Of a stretch of 64,000 nt of DNA, positions 10,381 to 59,526 are shown piece after piece. This stretch comes from an uncultured Thermoleophilia bacterium (GTDB lineage Bacteria; Actinomycetota; Thermoleophilia; UBA2241): positions 14,832-78,831 of the forward strand of contig CAWBNR010000007.1 of the NCBI GenBank assembly GCA_963790185.1, in the 5' to 3' direction. Made by a program: the position numbers and the translations under genes. Within the stretch, counting starts at the first letter, position 1; every line of letters begins with the position of its first letter. Under the pieces are notes generated by a model. It was not told the DNA's origin. It worked only from the letters and a program-made list of their open reading frames with translations, and did no database searches.

Positions 10381-11354
10381 TTATCGCGAGGTGCGCGGTC
10401 TGCCCCTGGAACCAAAGAACTCGATGATCCCGTCAGGCATGAATATGATTACCACGATAAACAGGCAACCGTAAATGATGCGCGCCCACTCTGCTTTCAC
10501 GAACGTGGATAAGCCTTCGTTTATCACTGAAAGCGCCACCGCTCCCACCACGGGGCCCAGCCATGATTTGCCTCCACCGAACAGGGACATCAGCACGATG
10601 AGGATCGAGATGTTCACGTCAAAAACAATTTGCGGATCAATATAGCTCAGGTAATACGCGTAAATTCCACCAACCATTCCCGGAAAAAAGGCGGAAAGCG
10701 CGAATGCTTGAATTTTGAGCAAAGGAGCATTGATGGCCATGGTTTGGGCGACTTCTTCGTCTTCTTTGATGGCCTCTGAGTCCCGCGCCGAATCTGGAAC
10801 CGGCAATGCGGGCGCTGATCAAGACCGTGATGACCGTCAGCCCGAGCATCACCTCAAACAGAATGGACCGACTCAAGCCGATGGGCAAATCCATAGACTT
10901 GAGCCAGAGTCCGTCCGCACCTCCCAGGATGTCCAGATTCTTCACGGTCAACTGGACCACGAATGCGAAACAAAGTGTAATAACGGCGAAATAGGGTCCT
11001 CGTAATCTGAGGCACGGATATCCCACGAAGACTGCCACCACGGACGCTACGCCTCCGGCCGGGATGGCAGACAGATATCGTCCATACCGCAGAAAGGCCG
11101 AAATGCTTTTCCAGCATCGCGGTGGTATACGCACCAATTCCGAAAAAGGCCACGTGACCGAAAGAAAGGTATCCCGCATATCCTCCTATCAGATTCCACG
11201 ATGTGGCCAGCGTCACGTACATGAACACGTTGAAGAGGAGGGATATGAAGTAAATTGGCGGTGCGAGCAGGGGAAACGCAGCCAGACACGCAGTGAGTGC
11301 GATTGTCGTTCCCACAAACGCGCGTGCGGAGCCGGTGTGCTTCAGCCATATCAA
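10381..11354 (-). CDS. livM: Branched-chain amino acid ABC transporter permease LivM; two apparent frameshifts
   Basis: Three overlapping ORFs (10381-10806, 10637-11179, 10854-11354) together give a LivM-like membrane protein. Confidence 0.8.
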
Positions 11355-30349: not shown

Positions 30350-30647
30350 ATGGAAGACAAAGTCAAAACCACGGAAGAACTCCTGACCGAAGGGTCTCTC
30401 CTACGCGAGCAAGGTGCCGAGTTCGATGGACGTGACGCGGACTTACTGCCGCTTGAAGCAAAGGGCACAGGCTTGGAGCGACATACGAGTGAGGTCGCTC
30501 CCGAAGATAGGAGCAGGGTTGAAGAACCACCACAGGCTGGAAAAGACCACCCGGCTTCTCCAGGCAATGAACGCTGCTCAGAATCGCTTCATAAGCAACG
30601 GCGATCCGAGACAGCTTTTCGACGGGTTGTTGGGTCCGGGTCGGTAG
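30350..30647 (+). CDS. Small acidic hypothetical protein; its stop codon (30645-30647) coincides with the GC-content junction
   Basis: GGAGT-type ribosome-binding site. The long ORF 30263-31021 reads through into the antisense of a high-GC gene and is not credible beyond 30647. Confidence 0.3.
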
Positions 30648-30650
30648 TCG

Positions 30651-31252
30651 CGGTCAAAGACGCGTACTTCAGAGGGGGCGTCGACGCGCTCGAAGAGGTG
30701 TCCGGTCGCCTCCTCGGCGAGCACGAAGGCGGGCACGCGCAGCATCTCCGCGGCGTTGAACGCCTCGACGGTCAGGGAGAACATCTCAGCGACGGACCAA
30801 GGGGCGAACGCCACCACTTGGTAGTCGCCGTGGCTGCCGTACTTGACGGTCATCACGTCGCCGCCGCCGACCTTCGTCGCCTGTCCGGTGCTGGGTCCCG
30901 CCCGCTGGACGTCGACGACCACGAGCGGGGTCTCGGTGAAGGCCGCGTACCCCAGGCACTCCTGCATGAGGCTCAGGCCCGGTCCGGACGTGGCGGTCAT
31001 GGCCTTCACGCCGGACCATGAGGCGCCGGCCACGGCCGCGATGGAGCCGATCTCGTCCTCCATCTGGATGAACGCCCCGTCGTGGGCCGGCAGCAGCCGG
31101 GCCAGGTTCTCCATGATCTCCGACGAGGGCGTGATGGGGTAGCCGGCGTAGAAACGGCAGCCGGCCGCGATCGCCGCCTCGGCGGCGGCCTCGTTACCCG
31201 ACATGTAGCGGGGGCCGGCGGGGATGCCGGTGGGTGTCGTGGAATACGGCAT
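30651..31252 (-). pseudogene. 2-oxoacid:ferredoxin oxidoreductase alpha-subunit (KorA/PorA-like) N-terminal fragment, truncated at the composition junction
   Basis: GNEAAAEAAIAAGCRFYAGYPITPSSEIMENL is the TPP-enzyme N-terminal module. Only ~200 aa are present where ~370-600 are expected; homology stops where GC drops. Confidence 0.55.
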
Positions 31253-51996: not shown

Positions 51997-52166
51997 CCGA
52001 GGCGCGCTGCCTCCCGCGATCACCGGCGAGCCGCACGGCACGCGAGCAGGGAAGGCCGCGCAGCGCGCGAATCAGTCGGGACAGGGTGCCGACGGTCGGC
52101 GTGCGGTCCGGATGGCCCGTCACATCGCGACCCCGGTGGCGAGCCGAAGGGATGGGGCGAGCAGTC

Positions 52167-52577
52167 ATGGCAGCGACACGTCGCAAGGCGCGGAGGGCGA
52201 CTGCGCGGCCACGGCTGCGCTGGGGCCGCTTCCTGGTCCTGGCGCTCGTCCTCGTCGCGGCCGCGCTCTACGCCGAGCCTCTGCGCGCCTTCTTCGTGCA
52301 GCAGGACCGCTACGAGAAGGCATCGACCGCGCTCGCGAGCGCGCAGGCCGACAATCGGGTGCTGCACGCCGAGATCGAGCGCCTCGGGACCGACTCGTAC
52401 GTCGCGGAGCGGGCGCTCTCCGACCTGCAGATGGTGCCGCGCGGCATGCAGGCGTTCGTGGTCAAGGGCCTGCCCGGCGAGTCCGCGGCGGCGGGCGGCG
52501 GCGGGCAGGCCGTCGTGAAGGACACGCTCTCCCCGCTTGACCGTCTCACCGATCTCTGGCGGACGCTCTCCGAGTAG
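52167..52577 (+). CDS. Septum formation initiator (FtsB/DivIC-like)
   Basis: Basic N-terminus, single TM helix, then coiled coil (ASAQADNRVLHAEIERL). Position after eno matches the conserved actinobacterial arrangement. Confidence 0.55.
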   Translation: MAATRRKARRATARPRLRWGRFLVLALVLVAAALYAEPLRAFFVQQDRYEKASTALASAQADNRVLHAEIERLGTDSYVAERALSDLQMVPRGMQAFVVKGLPGESAAAGGGGQAVVKDTLSPLDRLTDLWRTLSE

Positions 52578-52610
52578 CTCTCGCGCGGCGCGAACCAGAC
52601 GCTCGCGCAC

Positions 52611-53234
52611 GTGCTCTGCATCCGCGCGCCGCATGACGCGCTCGCGCACGGCGTGTACGCTGGCGCCATGGTCGAAGACCTCCCGTCTGATCCGCTCTCC
52701 CGCGTGGGTATCGCGGACGGTGACGAGCGCGTCGTCAGGGGCCAGATCGGTCGCCGGCCGAGGCCGATGAGCGCGGTGGCGGCCCGTTGCCCGCACGGAT
52801 CCCCGGCCGCCGTCGAGGTCCTCCCGGCCGACGAGCGCGGCCGTCCGTTCCCGACCCTGTACTACTTGACGTGTCCGACGGCCGTCGCCGCACTGTCGCG
52901 GCTGGAGAGCGCCGGTGGTGTCGAGCTCTTCCAGCGGGCCGTCGACGGTGACGATGGCCTGCGGGTGTCGCTTGCGCAGGCGGTGCAGGAGACATGCGAG
53001 CGGCGCGCCGAGCTGGCGCGCACGCTTGGGCTCACGGCCCTCGACGGCGGCGCCTCGCTTAGGACCGGCATCGGAGGTGTCGCCGACGCGTCACGCCTCA
53101 AGTGCCTGCACGCGCACGCGGCCCACGGGCTGGCGCGGCCTCCGTATCGCCTGGGCGCCGAGGTCATCGCCGCGGCGGCCGGGCTCTGGTGTGACGACCG
53201 CCGTTGTGCGGCCTACGCTGAGGACGTCCCGTGA
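52611..53234 (+). CDS. DUF501-family protein
   Basis: FPTLYYLTCP ... KCLHAH motifs; conserved partner upstream of ppx in Actinobacteria. An alternative start lies at 52668. Confidence 0.6.
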   Translation: MLCIRAPHDALAHGVYAGAMVEDLPSDPLSRVGIADGDERVVRGQIGRRPRPMSAVAARCPHGSPAAVEVLPADERGRPFPTLYYLTCPTAVAALSRLESAGGVELFQRAVDGDDGLRVSLAQAVQETCERRAELARTLGLTALDGGASLRTGIGGVADASRLKCLHAHAAHGLARPPYRLGAEVIAAAAGLWCDDRRCAAYAEDVP

Positions 53235-54178
53235 AGGTCGCTGTCGTCGACCTCGGCACGAACACGTGCAGGCTGCTGCTCGCCGACGTCGTCGACGGGC
53301 GGATCGCGGCCGTTGCGTCGCGCGAGACCCAGGTGGTCCGGCTCGGGCAGGGGGTCGACGGCCGCGGGCGCCTCGCGCCCGCGGCCGTCGACCGCACCCT
53401 CGCCTGCCTGGCGGGCTACACGGCCGCGGCCGCGGCGTACCGCCCCGAGCGCTCGCTGCTCTTCGCCACGAGCGCCCTGCGTGACGCGGCCGACGGCGAG
53501 CGGTTCCTCCGCCGGGCGGAGGCCGAGCACGGCTGGCCGTGCGAGGTCATCGAGGGCGACCTCGAGGGCCGGCTCGCTTTTCGCGGCGCGGTCGCCGGTC
53601 TCGCGCGCCCGGCGCCGGGGCGTCTGCTGGTCGTCGACATCGGCGGCGGCAGCACCGAAGTCATCGTCGGCGACGGCGTCTCCGGCGAGGCGGTCGCCGT
53701 GCGCAGCGTCGACGTCGGCGCCGTGCGCCTGACCGAGCGCTGCTTCGCCGACGATCCGCCGAGCGACGCGCAGTGGGCGGCGGCGAGCGCGCTCGTCCGG
53801 AGCGCGCTCGCCGCCGCCTCCGCCGAGGTCGTCGCCGCGGCCGGCGCGCCCGCCGTCGGGATCGGCGTCGCCGGCACGTTCACCACCCTTGTCGCCTACG
53901 TGCTCGGCCTGCGCGAGTTCCGGCGCGAGCTCGTCGACGGCTACGAGCTGAGCCGCGAGACGATCCGCGCCGCGATCGACCGCTTCCGGCGGCTCACGAG
54001 CGCCCAACGGGCCGAGCTGCCCGGCATTCGGCCCGGCCGCGAAGACGTGATACCGGCCGGCGCCCTGATCGCCGCCGAGGCGTGTCGCGCCTTCGGTCTC
54101 GACGCTCTGCGCGTCTCCACCTCGGGTATCCTCGAGGGCGCCGGCCTCTGGGTGGCCGAGTGCCCCGAGTCCGGCTGA
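53231..54178 (+). CDS. ppx: Ppx/GppA-family exopolyphosphatase
   Basis: VAVVDLGTNTCRLLLA (actin-like ATPase N-terminus), VVDIGGGSTE; GTGA overlap with the DUF501 stop. Confidence 0.75.
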   Translation: MKVAVVDLGTNTCRLLLADVVDGRIAAVASRETQVVRLGQGVDGRGRLAPAAVDRTLACLAGYTAAAAAYRPERSLLFATSALRDAADGERFLRRAEAEHGWPCEVIEGDLEGRLAFRGAVAGLARPAPGRLLVVDIGGGSTEVIVGDGVSGEAVAVRSVDVGAVRLTERCFADDPPSDAQWAAASALVRSALAAASAEVVAAAGAPAVGIGVAGTFTTLVAYVLGLREFRRELVDGYELSRETIRAAIDRFRRLTSAQRAELPGIRPGREDVIPAGALIAAEACRAFGLDALRVSTSGILEGAGLWVAECPESG

Positions 54179-54226
54179 GCCCCGAGTCCCGGCGACGGTC
54201 GCCGCCCGCGTATACTCTGCGCTGAT

Positions 54227-54265
54227 GCCGGAGTGGCGGAACTGGTAGACGCCGGGGACTTGAAA
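54227..54265 (+). repeat. 39-nt direct repeat identical to the 5' half (acceptor/D-arm/5' anticodon stem) of the tRNA at 56669; putative att site / tRNA fragment
   Basis: GCCGGAGTGGCGGAACTGGTAGACGCCGGGGACTTGAAA is identical at both sites. The sequence diverges afterwards and no complementary 3' acceptor strand follows. Confidence 0.6.
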
Positions 54266-54695
54266 TGCGTCAGGCTGGTCCCAATGGGTTCTATTGCAGC
54301 CCGTCTCAGGCTCGCCCTCATCAGGCTCGTGACACTGCGTCAGTCGCTGTCCCACCGTCTTCCGACGACCACGTTTGCACTCTGGTTTGCAGCAATCGGT
54401 CAGCTGCGCTGATGGCGATACGAGGGCATTGGACCCGGCTGCCCAGTGATTGATTTACGCCGGTCCGCACTTGGGGAACACTCTGAAACGGAAGCTGAGG
54501 GAGGGCCGCTACCTCCCTGATGTGAGAGCCAGATTCGAGCAGATGCTCCTTGAGCTGGGAGGCCGGCGCGCGTCAGTTACTCGCGAGAGCCGGAAAGTCA
54601 AGTCCTAGCCGCCCTCCTTGTTCGTCATCCCCGAAGAGAGTGATACTGAAGAAGGCGGGACAAGGGGCGCTTCGCCAGGACAGGAGGGAGCCGTC

Positions 54696-55724
54696 ATGGG
54701 CGGAATCACCATCACCATCAACTTCGGTCCACACTGGACTGAGTCGTTCGGCGGTTCCCTTGAGTCTGAGCCTCCAGAGAGTGACTGGGTCGCAATCGAC
54801 TTCGAGACGGCAACGGGACAGCGGGACAGCGCATGCGCGGTGGGGTTGGCTCATGTTCGTCAGGGCAAGGTCGTGGCGGTCGAGAGGGCCTTGATACAGC
54901 CGCCGGGGAACGACTACTTTGGCTACAACATCATGGTACATGGCATCGAGCCAACGATGACCGAGACTGCGCCGACGTTCGAGGACATCTGGCCCTTGCT
55001 GTTCCAGCGAATCCACTCCAAGCCCGTGGTCGCTCACAACGCCAGCTTCGACTTCAGCGTGCTGCGACATTGCCTTGATATGGCGGACATCGAGTACCCA
55101 GAGCTGGACTACTACTGCACGCGGGTCTTCTCCCTGATGCGCTGGCCAGAGCTGCCAAGCCACGCGCTTGAACTGGTCGCCGACCGCTGTGCCGTCGAGT
55201 TTGGCCACCACGATCCCGGTGAGGACGCACGGGCCTGCGCTGAGATTGCTCTCCACATCGCGCGGGAGTGCAGCGCGGGCTGTCTTGAGGAAATCGCCGC
55301 CGCCTGCGGGGTCCGGACCGGAAGGCTTCATCCCGGCAGGTACGACGCTTGCAGCTACAGCAGCCATGGCTCCCGCCAGCAGCGCCGTGAGAGTTCCAGA
55401 CTGACAGAAGCGGATGTGGCTTCACTGGAGTGCGGCGAGTTCGATGAGGCTCATCCGTTCTACTGCGCCGAGGTCATCTTCACAGGCACGCTGCAGAGCA
55501 TGGAGCGTGGAGCCGCGCAGCGGCTGGTCGAGAACGTGGGCGGGTGTGCGCCAGACCGTGGGGTCACAAAGCACGCTGATTATCTGGTCGTCGGAGACGT
55601 TGATATGCGGAAGCTGCGGGCTGCTGAAGCGGTGACCAAGAAGATGGAGAGGGCGATGCAGTTGCGGGCAGCGGGCAAGGACATCGAGATTATCGGCGAG
55701 CGAGAGTTCCTCGAACTGCTCTGA
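54696..55724 (+). CDS. DnaQ-like DEDDh 3'-5' exonuclease fused to a C-terminal BRCT domain
   Basis: Exo I AIDFETATG, Exo II AHNASFDFSVL, Exo III HHDPGEDARACAEI. BRCT AEVIFTGTL...VTKHADYLVVGD. AGGAGGGA ribosome-binding site. Confidence 0.75.
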   Translation: MGGITITINFGPHWTESFGGSLESEPPESDWVAIDFETATGQRDSACAVGLAHVRQGKVVAVERALIQPPGNDYFGYNIMVHGIEPTMTETAPTFEDIWPLLFQRIHSKPVVAHNASFDFSVLRHCLDMADIEYPELDYYCTRVFSLMRWPELPSHALELVADRCAVEFGHHDPGEDARACAEIALHIARECSAGCLEEIAAACGVRTGRLHPGRYDACSYSSHGSRQQRRESSRLTEADVASLECGEFDEAHPFYCAEVIFTGTLQSMERGAAQRLVENVGGCAPDRGVTKHADYLVVGDVDMRKLRAAEAVTKKMERAMQLRAAGKDIEIIGEREFLELL

Positions 55725-55747
55725 GAGGGTCGGGAGGTCAGCGGCAT

Positions 55748-56512
55748 ATGGACTGGCAGTTTGGCTACAACTGCACGCACTTCGTCCCCTGTCTGGACAA
55801 GTGCCGTGTGAAGATAGACCGCTACAACAAGCGGTCGGATTTGCTTGCGGACAGGTGGTTGCTGACTCGCGAAGTCCTCATGTACACGGGCTGGTCCTCA
55901 GAGGAACTTGTCGAGCGCGTAGAGCGGGGCGAAGTAGCGGCCAAGAAGGTGGACAAGCCCATCAACCCGGAGCGGGACGGCTATCTGAGGTCGTGCTTGC
56001 CTTGCTCATGGGAGTGGGACGACTGCAGCATGGCCATCACCGGCGGCGTCTGTGAGTGGTATGAACCGCACGGCCAGGCGCACATAGGCTGCATAGCCGA
56101 CCTTCGGAACTGGCCCGAAGAGCATCCCAACACGGCCTACAGTCCCTCAGTCGAGGACTGGAGGTTGATAGAAGACCGGCTGTGCTGGCGGTCTGTGGGC
56201 GTTGCCGGTCCAACAGACGGTCCCCTAGTCATTGGTGGCGTGAACGTGTGGAGTCGCCGCCCGTGGCGTCCTCGTCGCTCCGGTCGTCCTCCAGAACCCG
56301 TGCTGGCTGTGATAGCCGACTCCTCTGGCCAGCGAAGCCAGATGCCTATCTTCGTCATCTCGGTGCGAGATGAAGCAAGCGACCGGACTCGCAAGGTCAC
56401 GTTCGCTGCCGACGAGGCTTCCCATGACACTTGGGAGTTCTACGTGCCACGCGGCGCGGAACTCAGCATTGGAGACGAAGAGGACCGTGTTGCCAAGGAC
56501 CGGAACGAGTAG
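55748..56512 (+). CDS. Cysteine-rich hypothetical protein (9 Cys in the first 140 aa), no recognisable family
   Basis: GGGAGG ribosome-binding site. Follows the exonuclease gene by 23 nt with the same lower GC. Confidence 0.4.
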   Translation: MDWQFGYNCTHFVPCLDKCRVKIDRYNKRSDLLADRWLLTREVLMYTGWSSEELVERVERGEVAAKKVDKPINPERDGYLRSCLPCSWEWDDCSMAITGGVCEWYEPHGQAHIGCIADLRNWPEEHPNTAYSPSVEDWRLIEDRLCWRSVGVAGPTDGPLVIGGVNVWSRRPWRPRRSGRPPEPVLAVIADSSGQRSQMPIFVISVRDEASDRTRKVTFAADEASHDTWEFYVPRGAELSIGDEEDRVAKDRNE

Positions 56513-56668
56513 CTCAGAGCGTCCTCCTTCCGGCTGCCCAAAGCCTGCGGACTTGCGCAGAAGGAGCGCGTGTTTCAAAGACGCCATTGGTCGTGTGGTC
56601 CCGGTACGCGTTTGCAGTCTGTCTGCAGATGAGCGGCTTTGGTCTACTCCAGCGTATGATTCGATCGT

Positions 56669-56758
56669 GCCGGAGTGGCGGAACTGGTAGACGCCGGGGA
56701 CTTGAAAATCGCCAGTCCCGCAAGGGACGTCCGGGTTCGACTCCCGGCTCCGGCACCA
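56669..56758 (+). tRNA. Type-II tRNA (long variable arm, Leu-like D-arm). Anticodon loop reads CU-UGA-AA (Ser-UGA in the canonical register), but the anticodon stem has two mispairs, so identity is uncertain
   Basis: Acceptor GCCGGAG/CTCCGGC, T-arm CCGGG-TTCGACT-CCCGG, variable arm GTCCC-GCAA-GGGAC, encoded CCA. Confidence 0.65.
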
Positions 56759-56909
56759 TGCGTCGTCCGCGATCTCGCCACCGCCCATCCGCGCCTTCCG
56801 TACCTTCGCGTCTTCCGCCCGCCCCTCTCGCGCACTATCATGGTGTTAGCGGCAGCGAGGAGGGGGCTCGACGCGATGTCCGCGTCGCCGGGTGGCTGCC
56901 GGGACAAGC

Positions 56910-57824
56910 ATGAAAGGGGACACCGTGGGCTACATGATCGCGCTCGTTGTCATCATCATCGTCATCGCGCTTCTGGTGGCGGGCATCCGTATCGTGCGCC
57001 CCACGAGCCGTGGTCTCGTCGAGCGGCTGGGCAAGTACAACCGCTTCGCCGGCCCGGGCTTGCACATCATCATCCCGCTGATCGAGCAGATGTACCGTGT
57101 CGACATCCGCGAGGCGCTCGTCGACGCGCAGCCGCAGACCATCATCACGAACGACAACCTGAACGCCCGCGTCGACGCGCAGGTCTACCTCAAGGTCAAG
57201 GCCGACGAGGAGAACGTCAAGGCGTCGCAGTACAACGTCGCCCAGTACGAGCGCCAGATCGTGAACCTGGCCCGCACCACGCTCCGTAACATCATCGGCA
57301 CCATGAGCCTGAAGTCGGCGAACAGCGAGCGCGGCCGGATCAACGAGGAGCTGCGCTCGACGCTCAAGGTCGAGACCGGGAGCTGGGGCATCGAGATCCT
57401 CCGCACTGAGCTCAAAGAGATCGACCCGCCGGCCGACGTGCAGGAGACGATGAACAAGGTCGTCAAGGCCGAGAACGAGAAGATCGCGGCGATCGACTAC
57501 GCCACGGCGCGCGAGACGCAGGCCGACGGCGAGCGGCGCGCCTCGATCCAGCAGGCGGAGGGTATCAAGCGGGCGCGCGTGCTGGCGGCCGAGGGTGAGG
57601 CCGAGGCGATCAAGCTGGTGAACGAGGCCGCCGACCACTACTTCGTCGGCAACGCACAGGCGCTGCGGCGCATCGAGGCCGTCGAGCGCGCCCTCTGGCA
57701 GAACGCCAAGGTGGTGCTGCCGAGCGACGCCGAGCTGGTCAACGTGATCGGCGACCTCGGCGGCCTGACGCCGATGCCGAAGGCCGGCGCGCCGTCACCG
57801 CCGCCGCCCACGAAGAAGAAGTGA
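56910..57824 (+). CDS. SPFH/band-7 (stomatin/prohibitin-like) membrane protein with Pro/Lys-rich tail
   Basis: N-terminal TM helix, then an SPFH core (RGLVERLGKYNRFAGPGLHIIIPLIEQMYRVDIRE...). Confidence 0.75.
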   Translation: MKGDTVGYMIALVVIIIVIALLVAGIRIVRPTSRGLVERLGKYNRFAGPGLHIIIPLIEQMYRVDIREALVDAQPQTIITNDNLNARVDAQVYLKVKADEENVKASQYNVAQYERQIVNLARTTLRNIIGTMSLKSANSERGRINEELRSTLKVETGSWGIEILRTELKEIDPPADVQETMNKVVKAENEKIAAIDYATARETQADGERRASIQQAEGIKRARVLAAEGEAEAIKLVNEAADHYFVGNAQALRRIEAVERALWQNAKVVLPSDAELVNVIGDLGGLTPMPKAGAPSPPPPTKKK

Positions 57825-57843
57825 CGCCTGCCGCCGCGCCCAC

Positions 57844-58692
57844 TCAGGCGGTCCGCCGGCCGAGCCGGCGCCAGGCCAGCCCGCGGCGCGGCGCGAAGAA
57901 GAACGCCACGACGAACAGGGCGGTCGCGGTCAGCACGATGGCGGCGCCCGAGGCGACGTCGAGGTAGTAGCTGAGGTAGAGGCCGACGATGCTCGAGACC
58001 ACGCCGACGAGCGCGGCGGTGAGCATCATCGTCGGCAGCCGCCGCGTCAGGAGCGACGCCGTCGCCCCCGGCGTCACGAGCAGCGCCGCGACGAGACCCA
58101 CGCCGACGGTCTGCAGCGACACCACGATGGTGAGCGCCAGGAGCACGAGCAGCGCCAACAGCACGAGGTTCGGTCTCCGGCCCAGCATGTGCGCGAGCAC
58201 GGGGTCGAACGAGGCCAGGAGCAGCTCGCGATAGAGCGCGGCGACCGCTGCCAGCACCGCCACGGCCAGCCCAGCCGTCAGCCACACGTCGGTCGTCGAC
58301 ACCCCGAGCACGTCCCCGAAGAGGATGTGCGTCAGGTCGGTCGCGTACGAACCCGTCGTGCTGATGAGGAGGACCCCCAGGGAGAGGGCCGCCGCGAAGA
58401 GGATGCCGATGGCCGTGTCCTCGCGCACGGCGCCGTGTCGGGAGAGGAAGCCGATGCCGAGCGCGACGAGCAGCGCCGCGACCAGGGCGCCGGCCAGCAG
58501 GTTCACGCCGGCCAGATAGGCGAGGGCGATGCCGGGGAGTACGGCGTGGGCCAGGGCGTCGCCGAGGAACGCCATCGAGCGCAGCACGACGTAGCAGCCG
58601 AGCACGGAGCAGACGAGCCCCACGAAGACCGCCGCCACGAGCGCGCGCTGCATGAAGGCGAGGGCGAAGGGCTCGGTCAGCCAGTCGATCAC
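57844..58692 (-). CDS. znuB: Metal (Zn/Mn) ABC transporter permease (ZnuB/MntB family)
   Basis: Multi-TM ABC-3 family sequence; GTG start chosen just after the znuC stop. Confidence 0.7.
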   Translation of the reverse strand: MIDWLTEPFALAFMQRALVAAVFVGLVCSVLGCYVVLRSMAFLGDALAHAVLPGIALAYLAGVNLLAGALVAALLVALGIGFLSRHGAVREDTAIGILFAAALSLGVLLISTTGSYATDLTHILFGDVLGVSTTDVWLTAGLAVAVLAAVAALYRELLLASFDPVLAHMLGRRPNLVLLALLVLLALTIVVSLQTVGVGLVAALLVTPGATASLLTRRLPTMMLTAALVGVVSSIVGLYLSYYLDVASGAAIVLTATALFVVAFFFAPRRGLAWRRLGRRTA

Positions 58693-58711
58693 GGCGTCCT
58701 CCGCGTGCTTG

Positions 58712-59526
<815 letters not shown>

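Follow-up and report, generated by a model that had tools for sequence, protein, structure and literature searches.

Most genomic islands known to reside in tRNA genes (tDNAs) are bounded by a fragment of the 3' part of the gene: among the 3,919 islands catalogued by Islander, 3,760 are associated with a 3' fragment and 159 with a 5' fragment, the latter being accepted only upstream of the tDNA, and the commonest sublocation of the attachment (att) site is centred on the anticodon (2,083/3,919; PMC4383910). Another class of described elements, the cis-mobilizable elements (CIMEs), have kept both attL and attR and have lost the genes for integration and transfer (PMC6323972); the known examples come mostly from Firmicutes and lie at the 3' ends of genes. 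Here, we describe a 2,442-bp islet with two cargo genes, encoding an exonuclease-BRCT protein and a cysteine-rich protein, which separates two copies of the 5' half of a tRNA-Leu(UAA) gene in an uncultured bacterium given as a soil Thermoleophilia. The islet lies in a stretch of 64,000 nucleotides (contig CAWBNR010000007.1 of assembly GCA_963790185.1, positions 14,832 to 78,831 of the forward strand), hereafter the window, whose coordinates are used throughout. It is a real and precisely bounded insertion.

The locus shares the main traits of the 5'-fragment islands of Islander, with a co-oriented tDNA fragment upstream of the full tDNA and foreign DNA between the two; as in Islander islands, identity between fragment and gene stops at the anticodon loop, and the gene is regenerated by island sequence. 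Its origin is foreign and its length falls at the bottom of the accepted range (2-200 kb), yet Islander requires an integrase within or overlapping the island and the islet has none. It also differs from those islands in the aberrant anticodon arm of the regenerated tRNA. CIME-like features are the identical 40-nt repeats at both ends, putatively working att sites, and a content of two cargo genes only, although no cognate integrative and conjugative element, integrative and mobilizable element or tandem accretion partner is known or visible here. The satellite-like element considered in the original prediction, which had been made from the letters of the window, was not borne out: compared with phage satellites (phage-inducible chromosomal islands or P4-like), the islet lacks integrase, replication and packaging genes, no relatives were found in IMG/VR, and the islet itself was not found a second time. 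The best description is that of a CIME-like remnant or hitchhiker, not of a satellite.

The direct repeat (54226-54265 and 56668-56707) is exact over 40 nt, comprising nucleotides 1-39 of the tRNA, as originally reported, plus one base upstream that had been missed. Beyond it, the copies agree at five of the eight following nucleotides. The 39-mer occurs twice in the window with up to three mismatches allowed, and was found in none of 100 shuffles; the 3' half of the tRNA occurs once in the window. The insert is 2,442 bp long and the DNA between the repeats 2,401 bp. The predicted drop in GC content was clear, with 61.5% at 54267-56667 vs. 75.0% in the left flank (52000-54225) and 69.9% in the right flank (56759-59000), and 70-75% in the host genome. 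Likewise, GC content at third codon positions (GC3) was 0.76 and 0.73 in the exonuclease and the cysteine-rich protein genes, respectively, compared with 0.94 in the neighbouring ppx and SPFH genes. The islet and its junctions comprise the following features:

54211-54216, plus strand: native -10-like box (TATACT) of the tRNA-Leu gene, stranded and facing into the islet, located by alignment to two related loci (L002 and L004); its promoter role is putative.
54226-54265, plus strand: left repeat copy, an attL-type junction formed by the displaced native 5' fragment of the tRNA-Leu gene (nt -1 to +39), ending after the GAAA of the anticodon loop, from the comparison of repeats.
54266-54695, no strand: left arm, 430 nt without a recognisable gene, GC 61.3%.
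54696-55724, plus strand: gene for a DEDDh (DnaQ-like) 3'-5' exonuclease with a predicted C-terminal LigA/RFC1-type BRCT domain, 342 aa, with the ribosome-binding site AGGAGG 7 nt upstream.
55748-56512, plus strand: gene for a Cys/His-rich protein with a predicted excisionase-like winged helix-turn-helix (HTH) core, 254 aa, conserved domain at residues 1-146 (55748-56185), hereafter the Cys/HTH protein.
56513-56667, no strand: right arm, with an element-borne -10-like box TATGAT (56655-56660) 8 nt before the tRNA start, from alignment to relatives.
56668-56707, plus strand: right repeat copy, an attR-type junction formed by the 5' half of the full tRNA gene, from the comparison of repeats.
56669-56758, plus strand: tRNA-Leu(UAA) ortholog whose anticodon loop has 8 nt (CUUGAAAA) owing to an extra G (56704) and whose anticodon stem has a G.G mismatch (56698/56711); labelled Ser(TGA) by ARAGORN and scoring 39 bits in Rfam.

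An independent assembly reproduced the islet together with the inner side of each junction, since a Logan short-read contig of 2,463 bp (L032, run ERR12035932) was 100% identical to positions 54232-56694 of the window. Related loci were retrieved by a search with the Ppx protein, resulting in 10 loci from Thermoleophilia metagenome-assembled genomes (MAGs), with identities of 84-86% for L001-L005 and 50-59% for L006-L010. In every locus reaching past ppx, a tRNA gene was located ~40-420 nt downstream of it. The uninterrupted ppx-tRNA-SPFH order that had been proposed as a check was found in L003 and L005, which share with the window the order ppx, tRNA, SPFH and ABC transporter and lack the insert; in L004 the tRNA directly follows ppx. 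Moreover, positions 54205-54266 and 56668-56758 of the window map onto positions 732-793 and 753-842 of L004, the 41-nt overlap corresponding to the duplicated segment. Based on the empty sites in L003 and L005 and on these overlapping coordinates, the 2,442 bp represent an insertion relative to the relatives. Neither cargo gene was encoded in any of the 10 loci, and the left copy is not a tRNA, so that neither of the two circumstances held up against an insertion in the original prediction (relatives with the same genes and no repeat, or a functional left copy) was encountered. A second tRNA at the left copy was rejected: both ARAGORN and Rfam called a tRNA only at 56669-56758, and the left copy plus 50 nt folded on a par with shuffled sequences (z = 0.27).

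The comparison with relatives also indicated which side of the islet is native. The sequence upstream of the left half-copy (CGCGTATACTCTGCGCTGA) aligned with the sequence upstream of the tRNA in the relatives, and positions 54202-54266 were 97-98% identical to the upstream region and 5' half of the tRNA in L002 and L004, where they precede an intact tRNA. The sequence upstream of the full tRNA (CAGCGTATGATTCGATCG), on the other hand, was unmatched in the close relatives, whose alignments begin exactly at 56668, and resembled instead the tRNA-Leu regions of distant Thermoleophilia: L006, L007 and L010 aligned from 56652-56653, and the arrangement of TATGAT followed by 8 nt was identical in L006. 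These matches imply that the element brought a tRNA-type -10 box together with a 5' half, and that the native ones were moved to the left end. Integration as originally predicted is thus supported, while its orientation had to be revised: promoter and 5' half are supplied by the element, and their native counterparts are those left stranded. A tandem duplication of the tRNA was rejected on the same grounds, since what precedes the full tRNA is unlike the native upstream region. The promoter function of both -10-like boxes (TATACT and TATGAT) is putative; for TATACT, a scan against the consensus returned no sigma-70 site. The two cargo genes run in the direction of the stranded native promoter, and no convincing terminator was found between it and the cargo genes, the sole match being inside the second gene; read-through from the native tRNA promoter into the cargo is plausible.

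In addition to the 5' side, the 3' side of the tRNA looks like a variable spot. The spacer between the tRNA and SPFH is short in the window (134 nt), longer in L003 and L005 (~650-720 nt) and longest in L004 and L006-L010 (2.9-7 kb), while in L002 no SPFH gene was present within 10 kb of the tRNA. No tRNA fragments were found 3' of the tRNA in the relatives.

Taken together, the anatomy of the locus makes it probable that the islet arose by site-specific recombination of a foreign 2,442-bp circle with tRNA-Leu(UAA) at or near the anticodon loop, the integrase being later deleted or supplied in trans. The att site of this small circle would have held a copy of the first 39 nt of the tRNA and a tRNA-type -10 box, and recombination within or beside the anticodon loop of the chromosomal gene would have rebuilt a full tRNA at the right end from the element promoter and 5' half plus the chromosomal 3' half, while the native promoter and 5' half would persist at the left end as a dead fragment. 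Such a geometry would be the mirror image of the usual 3'-side integration into tRNA genes. The junction of the attP circle would then read GATTCGATCG-TGCCGG...CTTGAAA-TGCGTCAGG, and that of the empty attB TATACTCTGCGCTGA-TGCCGG...CTTGAAA-ATCGCCAG. The enzyme involved may have been an anticodon-loop-specific tyrosine integrase. As the islet does not encode it, it would have been either deleted afterwards, in which case the islet would be a remnant, or provided by another element, as for a CIME-like hitchhiker. A crossover in the 5' part or anticodon region of the tRNA had been predicted, and it agrees with a repeat that ends in the anticodon loop and with the insert-free relatives L003 and L005. 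Past the end of the repeat, the motif TGCGTCAG, which adjoins the crossover at the start of the left arm, and ATCGCCAG in the tRNA are partly alike; together with the end of the repeat after GAAA, this partial similarity fits an anticodon-loop crossover by a tyrosine integrase. We infer the integrase mechanism and the exact crossover point from these features.

Signs of such an enzyme were not recovered from the islet itself: no integrase or recombinase domain, nor a remnant of one, was detected with Pfam and PHROGs in the two genes or in arm ORFs (open reading frames) of at least 25 aa, and the ORFs of this size in the left and right arms gave no Pfam or PHROG match of any kind. One ORF of 52 aa in the left arm (54450-54608) has a codon-position GC pattern resembling that of the cargo and is a candidate only. 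The Rfam scan of the islet returned only the tRNA, and the arms showed no similarity to any of the fetched loci, with tblastx yielding noise only. As for arm-type repeats in the reconstructed attP, only an 11-nt repeat (CCGGCTGCCCA) and TCAGGCTCG, present twice, were found, both within chance.

A type-II tRNA had been predicted at 56,669 and is indeed present, its identity being that of an ortholog of tRNA-Leu(UAA) with an 8-nt loop and a broken stem pair. The orthologs in eight loci are tRNA-Leu(taa), and the window tRNA was 94-96% identical to those of L002-L005 at the same locus. It shows a Leu-type D-arm, a long variable arm, a discriminator A and a CCA end; A73 is a Leu identity element, and Ser tRNAs have G73. 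The Ser(UGA) label given by ARAGORN was rejected, because a 7-nt loop would leave only three of the five stem pairs, Rfam flags all five as non-standard, and the orthologs are Leu(taa). The canonical anticodon arm of tRNA-Leu(UAA), i.e. a fully paired stem and a 7-nt loop with UAA, was not found in the window: the loop at 56701-56708 (CUUGAAAA) has 8 nt, in place of CUUAAAA in the orthologs, and the stem GGGGA/TCGCC has a central G.G mismatch. Rfam scores decreased from 53-57 bits in the tRNAs with a 7-nt loop (L002, L003, L004 and L006) to 47 bits in L005, whose 8-nt loop has the same extra G, and 39 bits in the window, where the stem mismatch is added to the 8-nt loop. The minimum-energy fold of the window tRNA was not a cloverleaf, while those of L003 and L005 were perfect cloverleaves.

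The extra G occurs in both repeat copies, and it is also present in the insert-free L005 (loop at 11066-11073), whose tRNA is otherwise intact. In strand exchange by tyrosine recombinases, each daughter junction takes its overlap region from attP or attB, one each. According to this logic, and since both copies hold the G, the target would have carried it before integration and the att site of the element would have matched it; were the G to lie beyond this overlap, it would derive from the right arm of the chromosomal site, and the target would still have carried it beforehand. The same logic, by which both att sites carry the G, led us to reject its creation by the integration event. Some caution is needed with single-base differences such as the G of L005, as these may be assembly indels: in L003, L005 and other loci with MFD names, conserved genes align as two frame-shifted pieces (ppx, ABC permease and ATPase in L005; ABC permease in L003), which suggests indel errors in those assemblies. 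A metagenome scan with the tRNA half carrying the G allele recovered a Leu-type tRNA with A73 (L023, 2309-2395, minus strand) in which the loop has 7 nt (CUUGAAA) and the anticodon is UGA.

In Streptomyces, bldA is the tRNA-Leu-UAA, an analogy that bears here only on dispensability. As with bldA, the target of the islet is a UUA-reading tRNA in a very GC-rich actinobacterial genome with hardly any use of UUA. UUA was found once among 8,598 codons of the high-GC3 host ORFs, and not at all in the cargo. The simplest reading of the extra-G allele would be relaxed selection on a bldA-like, nearly dispensable tRNA. The window tRNA may also be a functional expanded-loop decoder, like the +1 frameshift-suppressor tRNAs with 8-nt anticodon loops SufB2 and SufJ (PMC4238358; bioRxiv 10.1101/2020.12.31.424971), with which it shares one extra loop nucleotide.

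Several observations weigh against an origin by site-specific recombination. No integrase was found, so that this origin is deduced from the anatomy of the locus, and neither a second copy of the islet or of its arms nor another attL junction was recovered. One viral scan with the tRNA half carrying the G allele was empty, and the tRNA obtained in the metagenome scan was the only one and unrelated. The rebuilt tRNA looks impaired, which is unusual where integration should restore the target gene. Moreover, at the other loci at which the two-gene cassette was detected (see below) there is no tRNA or integrase, so that its link with mobility comes from the window locus, and the nearest relatives share ~85% Ppx identity, which makes the insertion undatable. 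Finally, an abrupt break in GC content at ~30.65 kb calls for general caution on the assembly.

Among the alternatives, the likeliest is that the islet is still a live, non-autonomous hitchhiker (CIME- or satellite-like), moved by an anticodon-loop tyrosine integrase whose gene lies at another place in the genome or on a helper element, and possibly using the HTH_17-like protein as a directionality factor; we regard it as unlikely. The 40-nt repeats are identical and the composition of the islet has not ameliorated, and the retention of att sites with the loss of integration and transfer genes is the very definition of a CIME (PMC6323972). The excisionase-type HTH core of the second gene points the same way, yet this protein accompanies the exonuclease in contexts free of tRNA and is thus not an islet-specific excisionase. 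The ends of L032 overlap by 21 nt, and joining them would give a circle of exactly 2,442 bp; such an overlap fits equally well a contig break at a 40-nt repeat longer than the assembler k-mer of 31. A source of integrase in trans was not apparent either, as the 20 larger ORFs in positions 1-37 kb of the window had housekeeping-type domains and the window ORFs scanned showed no integrase, nor was another copy of an arm or junction found.

A foreign circle or fragment carrying the 5' half of tRNA-Leu could instead have entered by RecA-dependent (Campbell-type) recombination, with no integrase ever involved. This is quite improbable in our view, even though an integrase is absent and the identity over 40 nt is perfect, since a segment of this length is a poor substrate for RecA. 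An element-borne tRNA promoter like that of other Thermoleophilia would be expected for a fragment from a related genome, but the partial similarity over the 8 nt beyond the repeat points to a binding site of the core type and not to a breakpoint at random. Furthermore, the perfect identity stops precisely within the anticodon loop, a classical crossover site for integrases (PMC4383910).

An assembly or binning artefact, i.e. a chimeric join through the conserved tRNA between two Thermoleophilia populations, is highly improbable: although the contig is metagenome-assembled, the 50-61% GC of the first 30.6 kb of the window breaks off abruptly within a POR_N ORF, and assemblers can pass from one genome to another at conserved repeats such as tRNA genes, two switches would be needed as well as a genome in which the 5' half of the tRNA is followed by non-tRNA sequence, L032 matches the window at 100% on the P' side of attL and on the P side of attR, and both chromosomal flanks are collinear with the relatives.

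Regarding this first part of the window (1-30650), its GC content (50-61%) contrasts with 65-77% in the rest, and the switch occurs at ~30600-30700, within the truncated POR_N ORF (30578-31252, minus strand). Among its genes are those for a sigma-54 activator, an AcrB transporter as two ORFs, an amino-acid ABC transporter, MCP, GvpL/F and BKACE. This part of the contig would be foreign DNA of very large extent, or else the product of a chimeric join in the MAG.

With respect to the cargo, the DnaQ-like DEDDh exonuclease that had been predicted was confirmed by a match to RNase_T (Pfam PF00929; residues 32-184, E = 9.9e-11, 42.9 bits vs. a gathering cut-off of 24) and by intact Exo I, II and III motifs in the translation (DFE in AIDFE, NASFD in HNASFD, and H-x4-D in HDPGED). 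The closest solved relatives in a PDB search were the PolC exonuclease (2p1j, 1.2e-10) and DinG from S. aureus. The C-terminal part (~80 residues) was tentatively assigned to the LigA/RFC1-type BRCT domains, a DNA-end-binding subclass as opposed to the phosphopeptide-binding one, on the basis of matches to the RFC1 BRCT (2k6g, residues 261-310, 0.005, PDB search), to positions 572-641 of the LigA model TIGR00575 (residues 242-312, 1.3e-7) and to PHROG ligase families (residues 249-342). The Pfam BRCT model (PF00533) did not match the window protein at E <= 0.1, although many homologs carry a precomputed PF00533 match. The exonuclease and ligase-BRCT families were the sole PHROG matches of the islet.

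The whole protein matched NCBIfam NF004844 (PRK06195, 'DNA polymerase III subunit epsilon'), from position 2 to 305 of a profile of 309 (5.9e-79), but its score of 265.7 bits lies below the cut-off of 373 bits, making it a relative and not an equivalog. In comparison with PRK06195 it has ~30 extra N-terminal residues (ITINFGPHW), which recur in those subtype-I sequences (defined below) that were inspected. The family is large, with 874 proteins at E <= 1e-20. Matches to defence models in PADLOC were limited to the exonuclease domain, both for PDC-S48 (residues 31-215 vs. positions 6-195 of a 411-position profile, i.e. not full-length) and for the Cas-associated DEDDh model, and nothing specific was found in the literature on bacterial exonuclease-BRCT proteins in defence. 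The same RNase_T plus BRCT architecture, at 30-31% identity over 91% of the length, is present in temperate phages of Streptococcus pneumoniae (e.g. IPP43, KY065483.1), where the gene is located beside the integrase in the lysogeny module, in an att-proximal position. These pneumococcal homologs indicate that the architecture can ride att-proximally on integrative elements; unlike the islet, the phages keep the integrase and their exonuclease genes have no Cys/HTH partner.

The Cys/HTH protein had no match in Pfam, PHROGs, NCBIfam or PADLOC. It had been described as having nine N-terminal cysteines and no recognisable family; the nine cysteines were confirmed, all within the first 146 of its 254 residues, while a small family with an HTH_17/excisionase-like core was found. 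Homologs are rare, with 28 clusters at 90% identity among 5.8 billion proteins and 59 representatives at 50% among 1.84 billion; they have ~145-185 aa and all cover residues 1-146 only. Invariant positions in the family are C9, C19, C93, C102 and H126-P127, and C115 is nearly so. As only these cysteines are conserved, four or five of the nine are those that matter, which fits a metal site, with the zinc type as a candidate. The family was not found in IMG/VR, phage GenBank records or PLSDB plasmids. To judge from these sequence searches, it is a new, small and unannotated family linked to exonuclease-BRCT genes.

An HTH core was suggested by several weak but concordant lines of evidence. HTH_17 (PF12728) matched weakly in 2 of 27 family members (0.011), and positions 31-68 of the family profile matched a protein built of HTH_17 repeats. 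The AlphaFold2 model had a pLDDT (predicted local distance difference test) of 71.5, exceeding 85 over residues 30-90, and its local Foldseek matches included phage excisionases (rmsd 1.6-2.2 A, E-values ~1) as well as PrtN, BldC and the Mu repressor (overall range 1.6-3 A); no global fold match was found for the model. Based on the HTH_17 matches, the family profile and the local structural matches, residues ~31-85 were tentatively assigned to a winged HTH of the excisionase/MerR type.

The C-terminal 108 residues of this protein (56186-56512) form an extension that starts where all 26 homologs end and has no homolog of its own. Its GC3 is 0.64, vs. 0.80 in the conserved domain, and its coding signal is weak. 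A lost stop codon, or read-through into formerly non-coding DNA, is the probable origin of the extension.

The pairing of the two genes is not particular to the islet. The cassette was found in at least 12 other contigs, none of them adjoining a tRNA, and in every context examined (L011, L012-L015, L016-L018, L019/L020, L021, L022 and the window) the exonuclease gene is located immediately 5' of the Cys/HTH gene, with an intergenic spacing of 12-30 nt or an overlap, except for L021 (gap of ~90 nt). The partner exonucleases belong to two subtypes, whose full-length identity to the window enzyme is only 26-29%; subtype I, which includes the window protein, has 334-350 aa and subtype II 286-300 aa. 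The constancy of the pairing across two divergent subtypes indicates that the linkage is old and presumably functional. As inferred from sequence, the two cargo genes thus form a single module rather than a chance assortment. The linkage is not reciprocal, since the closest subtype-I exonucleases (L024-L030) have no Cys/HTH partner. Cassettes next to integrases, the search for which had been suggested as a check, were not encountered: within reach of the other cassette loci there was no tRNA, tRNA fragment or integrase, so that the cassette is not intrinsically tied to islets of the tRNA type. In the case of L011, none of the 10 ORFs of its context had a PHROG match that would point to a prophage.

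Two arrangements of related exonucleases were also observed. In L022 (131-2969), a 407-aa RNase_T plus BRCT protein is followed by a 286-aa subtype-II exonuclease-BRCT and by the Cys/HTH gene, a three-gene run which shows that exonuclease-BRCT paralogs can be stacked. In L029 (6880-17909) and L030 (7612-16384), which hold the closest relatives of the window enzyme, the exonuclease lies among genes for a UvrD-like helicase, PD-(D/E)XK (Cas4-like) nuclease, HEPN_LA2681, Fic and HsdM; a second, divergent RNase_T-like gene (~290 aa) is present, and upstream of the exonuclease gene another partner takes the place of the Cys/HTH protein. By analogy, this layout resembles a defence island.

Regarding the possible function of the module, the BRCT domain would dock the DEDDh nuclease at a 5'-phosphorylated nick or a recessed end, and the metal-binding HTH partner (four Cys, plus Cys/His) would most likely give the nuclease its DNA target, or else regulate or restrain it; the biochemical roles of both proteins are put forward here from their domains. 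The outcome could be repair, defence, anti-defence or maintenance of the element, and the role in DNA-repair hijacking or anti-defence that had been proposed originally is speculation.

The islet provides a clean, bounded example of 5'-side tRNA integration, a rare but known mode, in a poorly studied phylum. In it, the element swaps the promoter of the tRNA, and the native promoter points into the cargo; finders that require an integrase, such as Islander, would miss it by design. What is new is, in the first place, a promoter-swapping, integrase-less islet of minimal size and, secondly, an allele of tRNA-Leu(UAA) with an 8-nt loop that is common to two genomes and to the att site of the element. 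Current concepts would change only if the module or the tRNA allele turned out to have a function. At the most far-reaching, and we consider this doubtful, the exonuclease-BRCT and the 4-Cys/HTH_17 protein might be an undescribed DNA-targeting system, packed in a compact cassette and delivered by an integrase-less 5'-side element that re-promotes tRNA-Leu(UAA), with an att site matching a +1 allele that persists in several Thermoleophilia lineages and is maybe functional. The third novelty, the unannotated 4-Cys/HTH family strictly tied to exonuclease-BRCT genes, offers a concrete pair of proteins for biochemistry.

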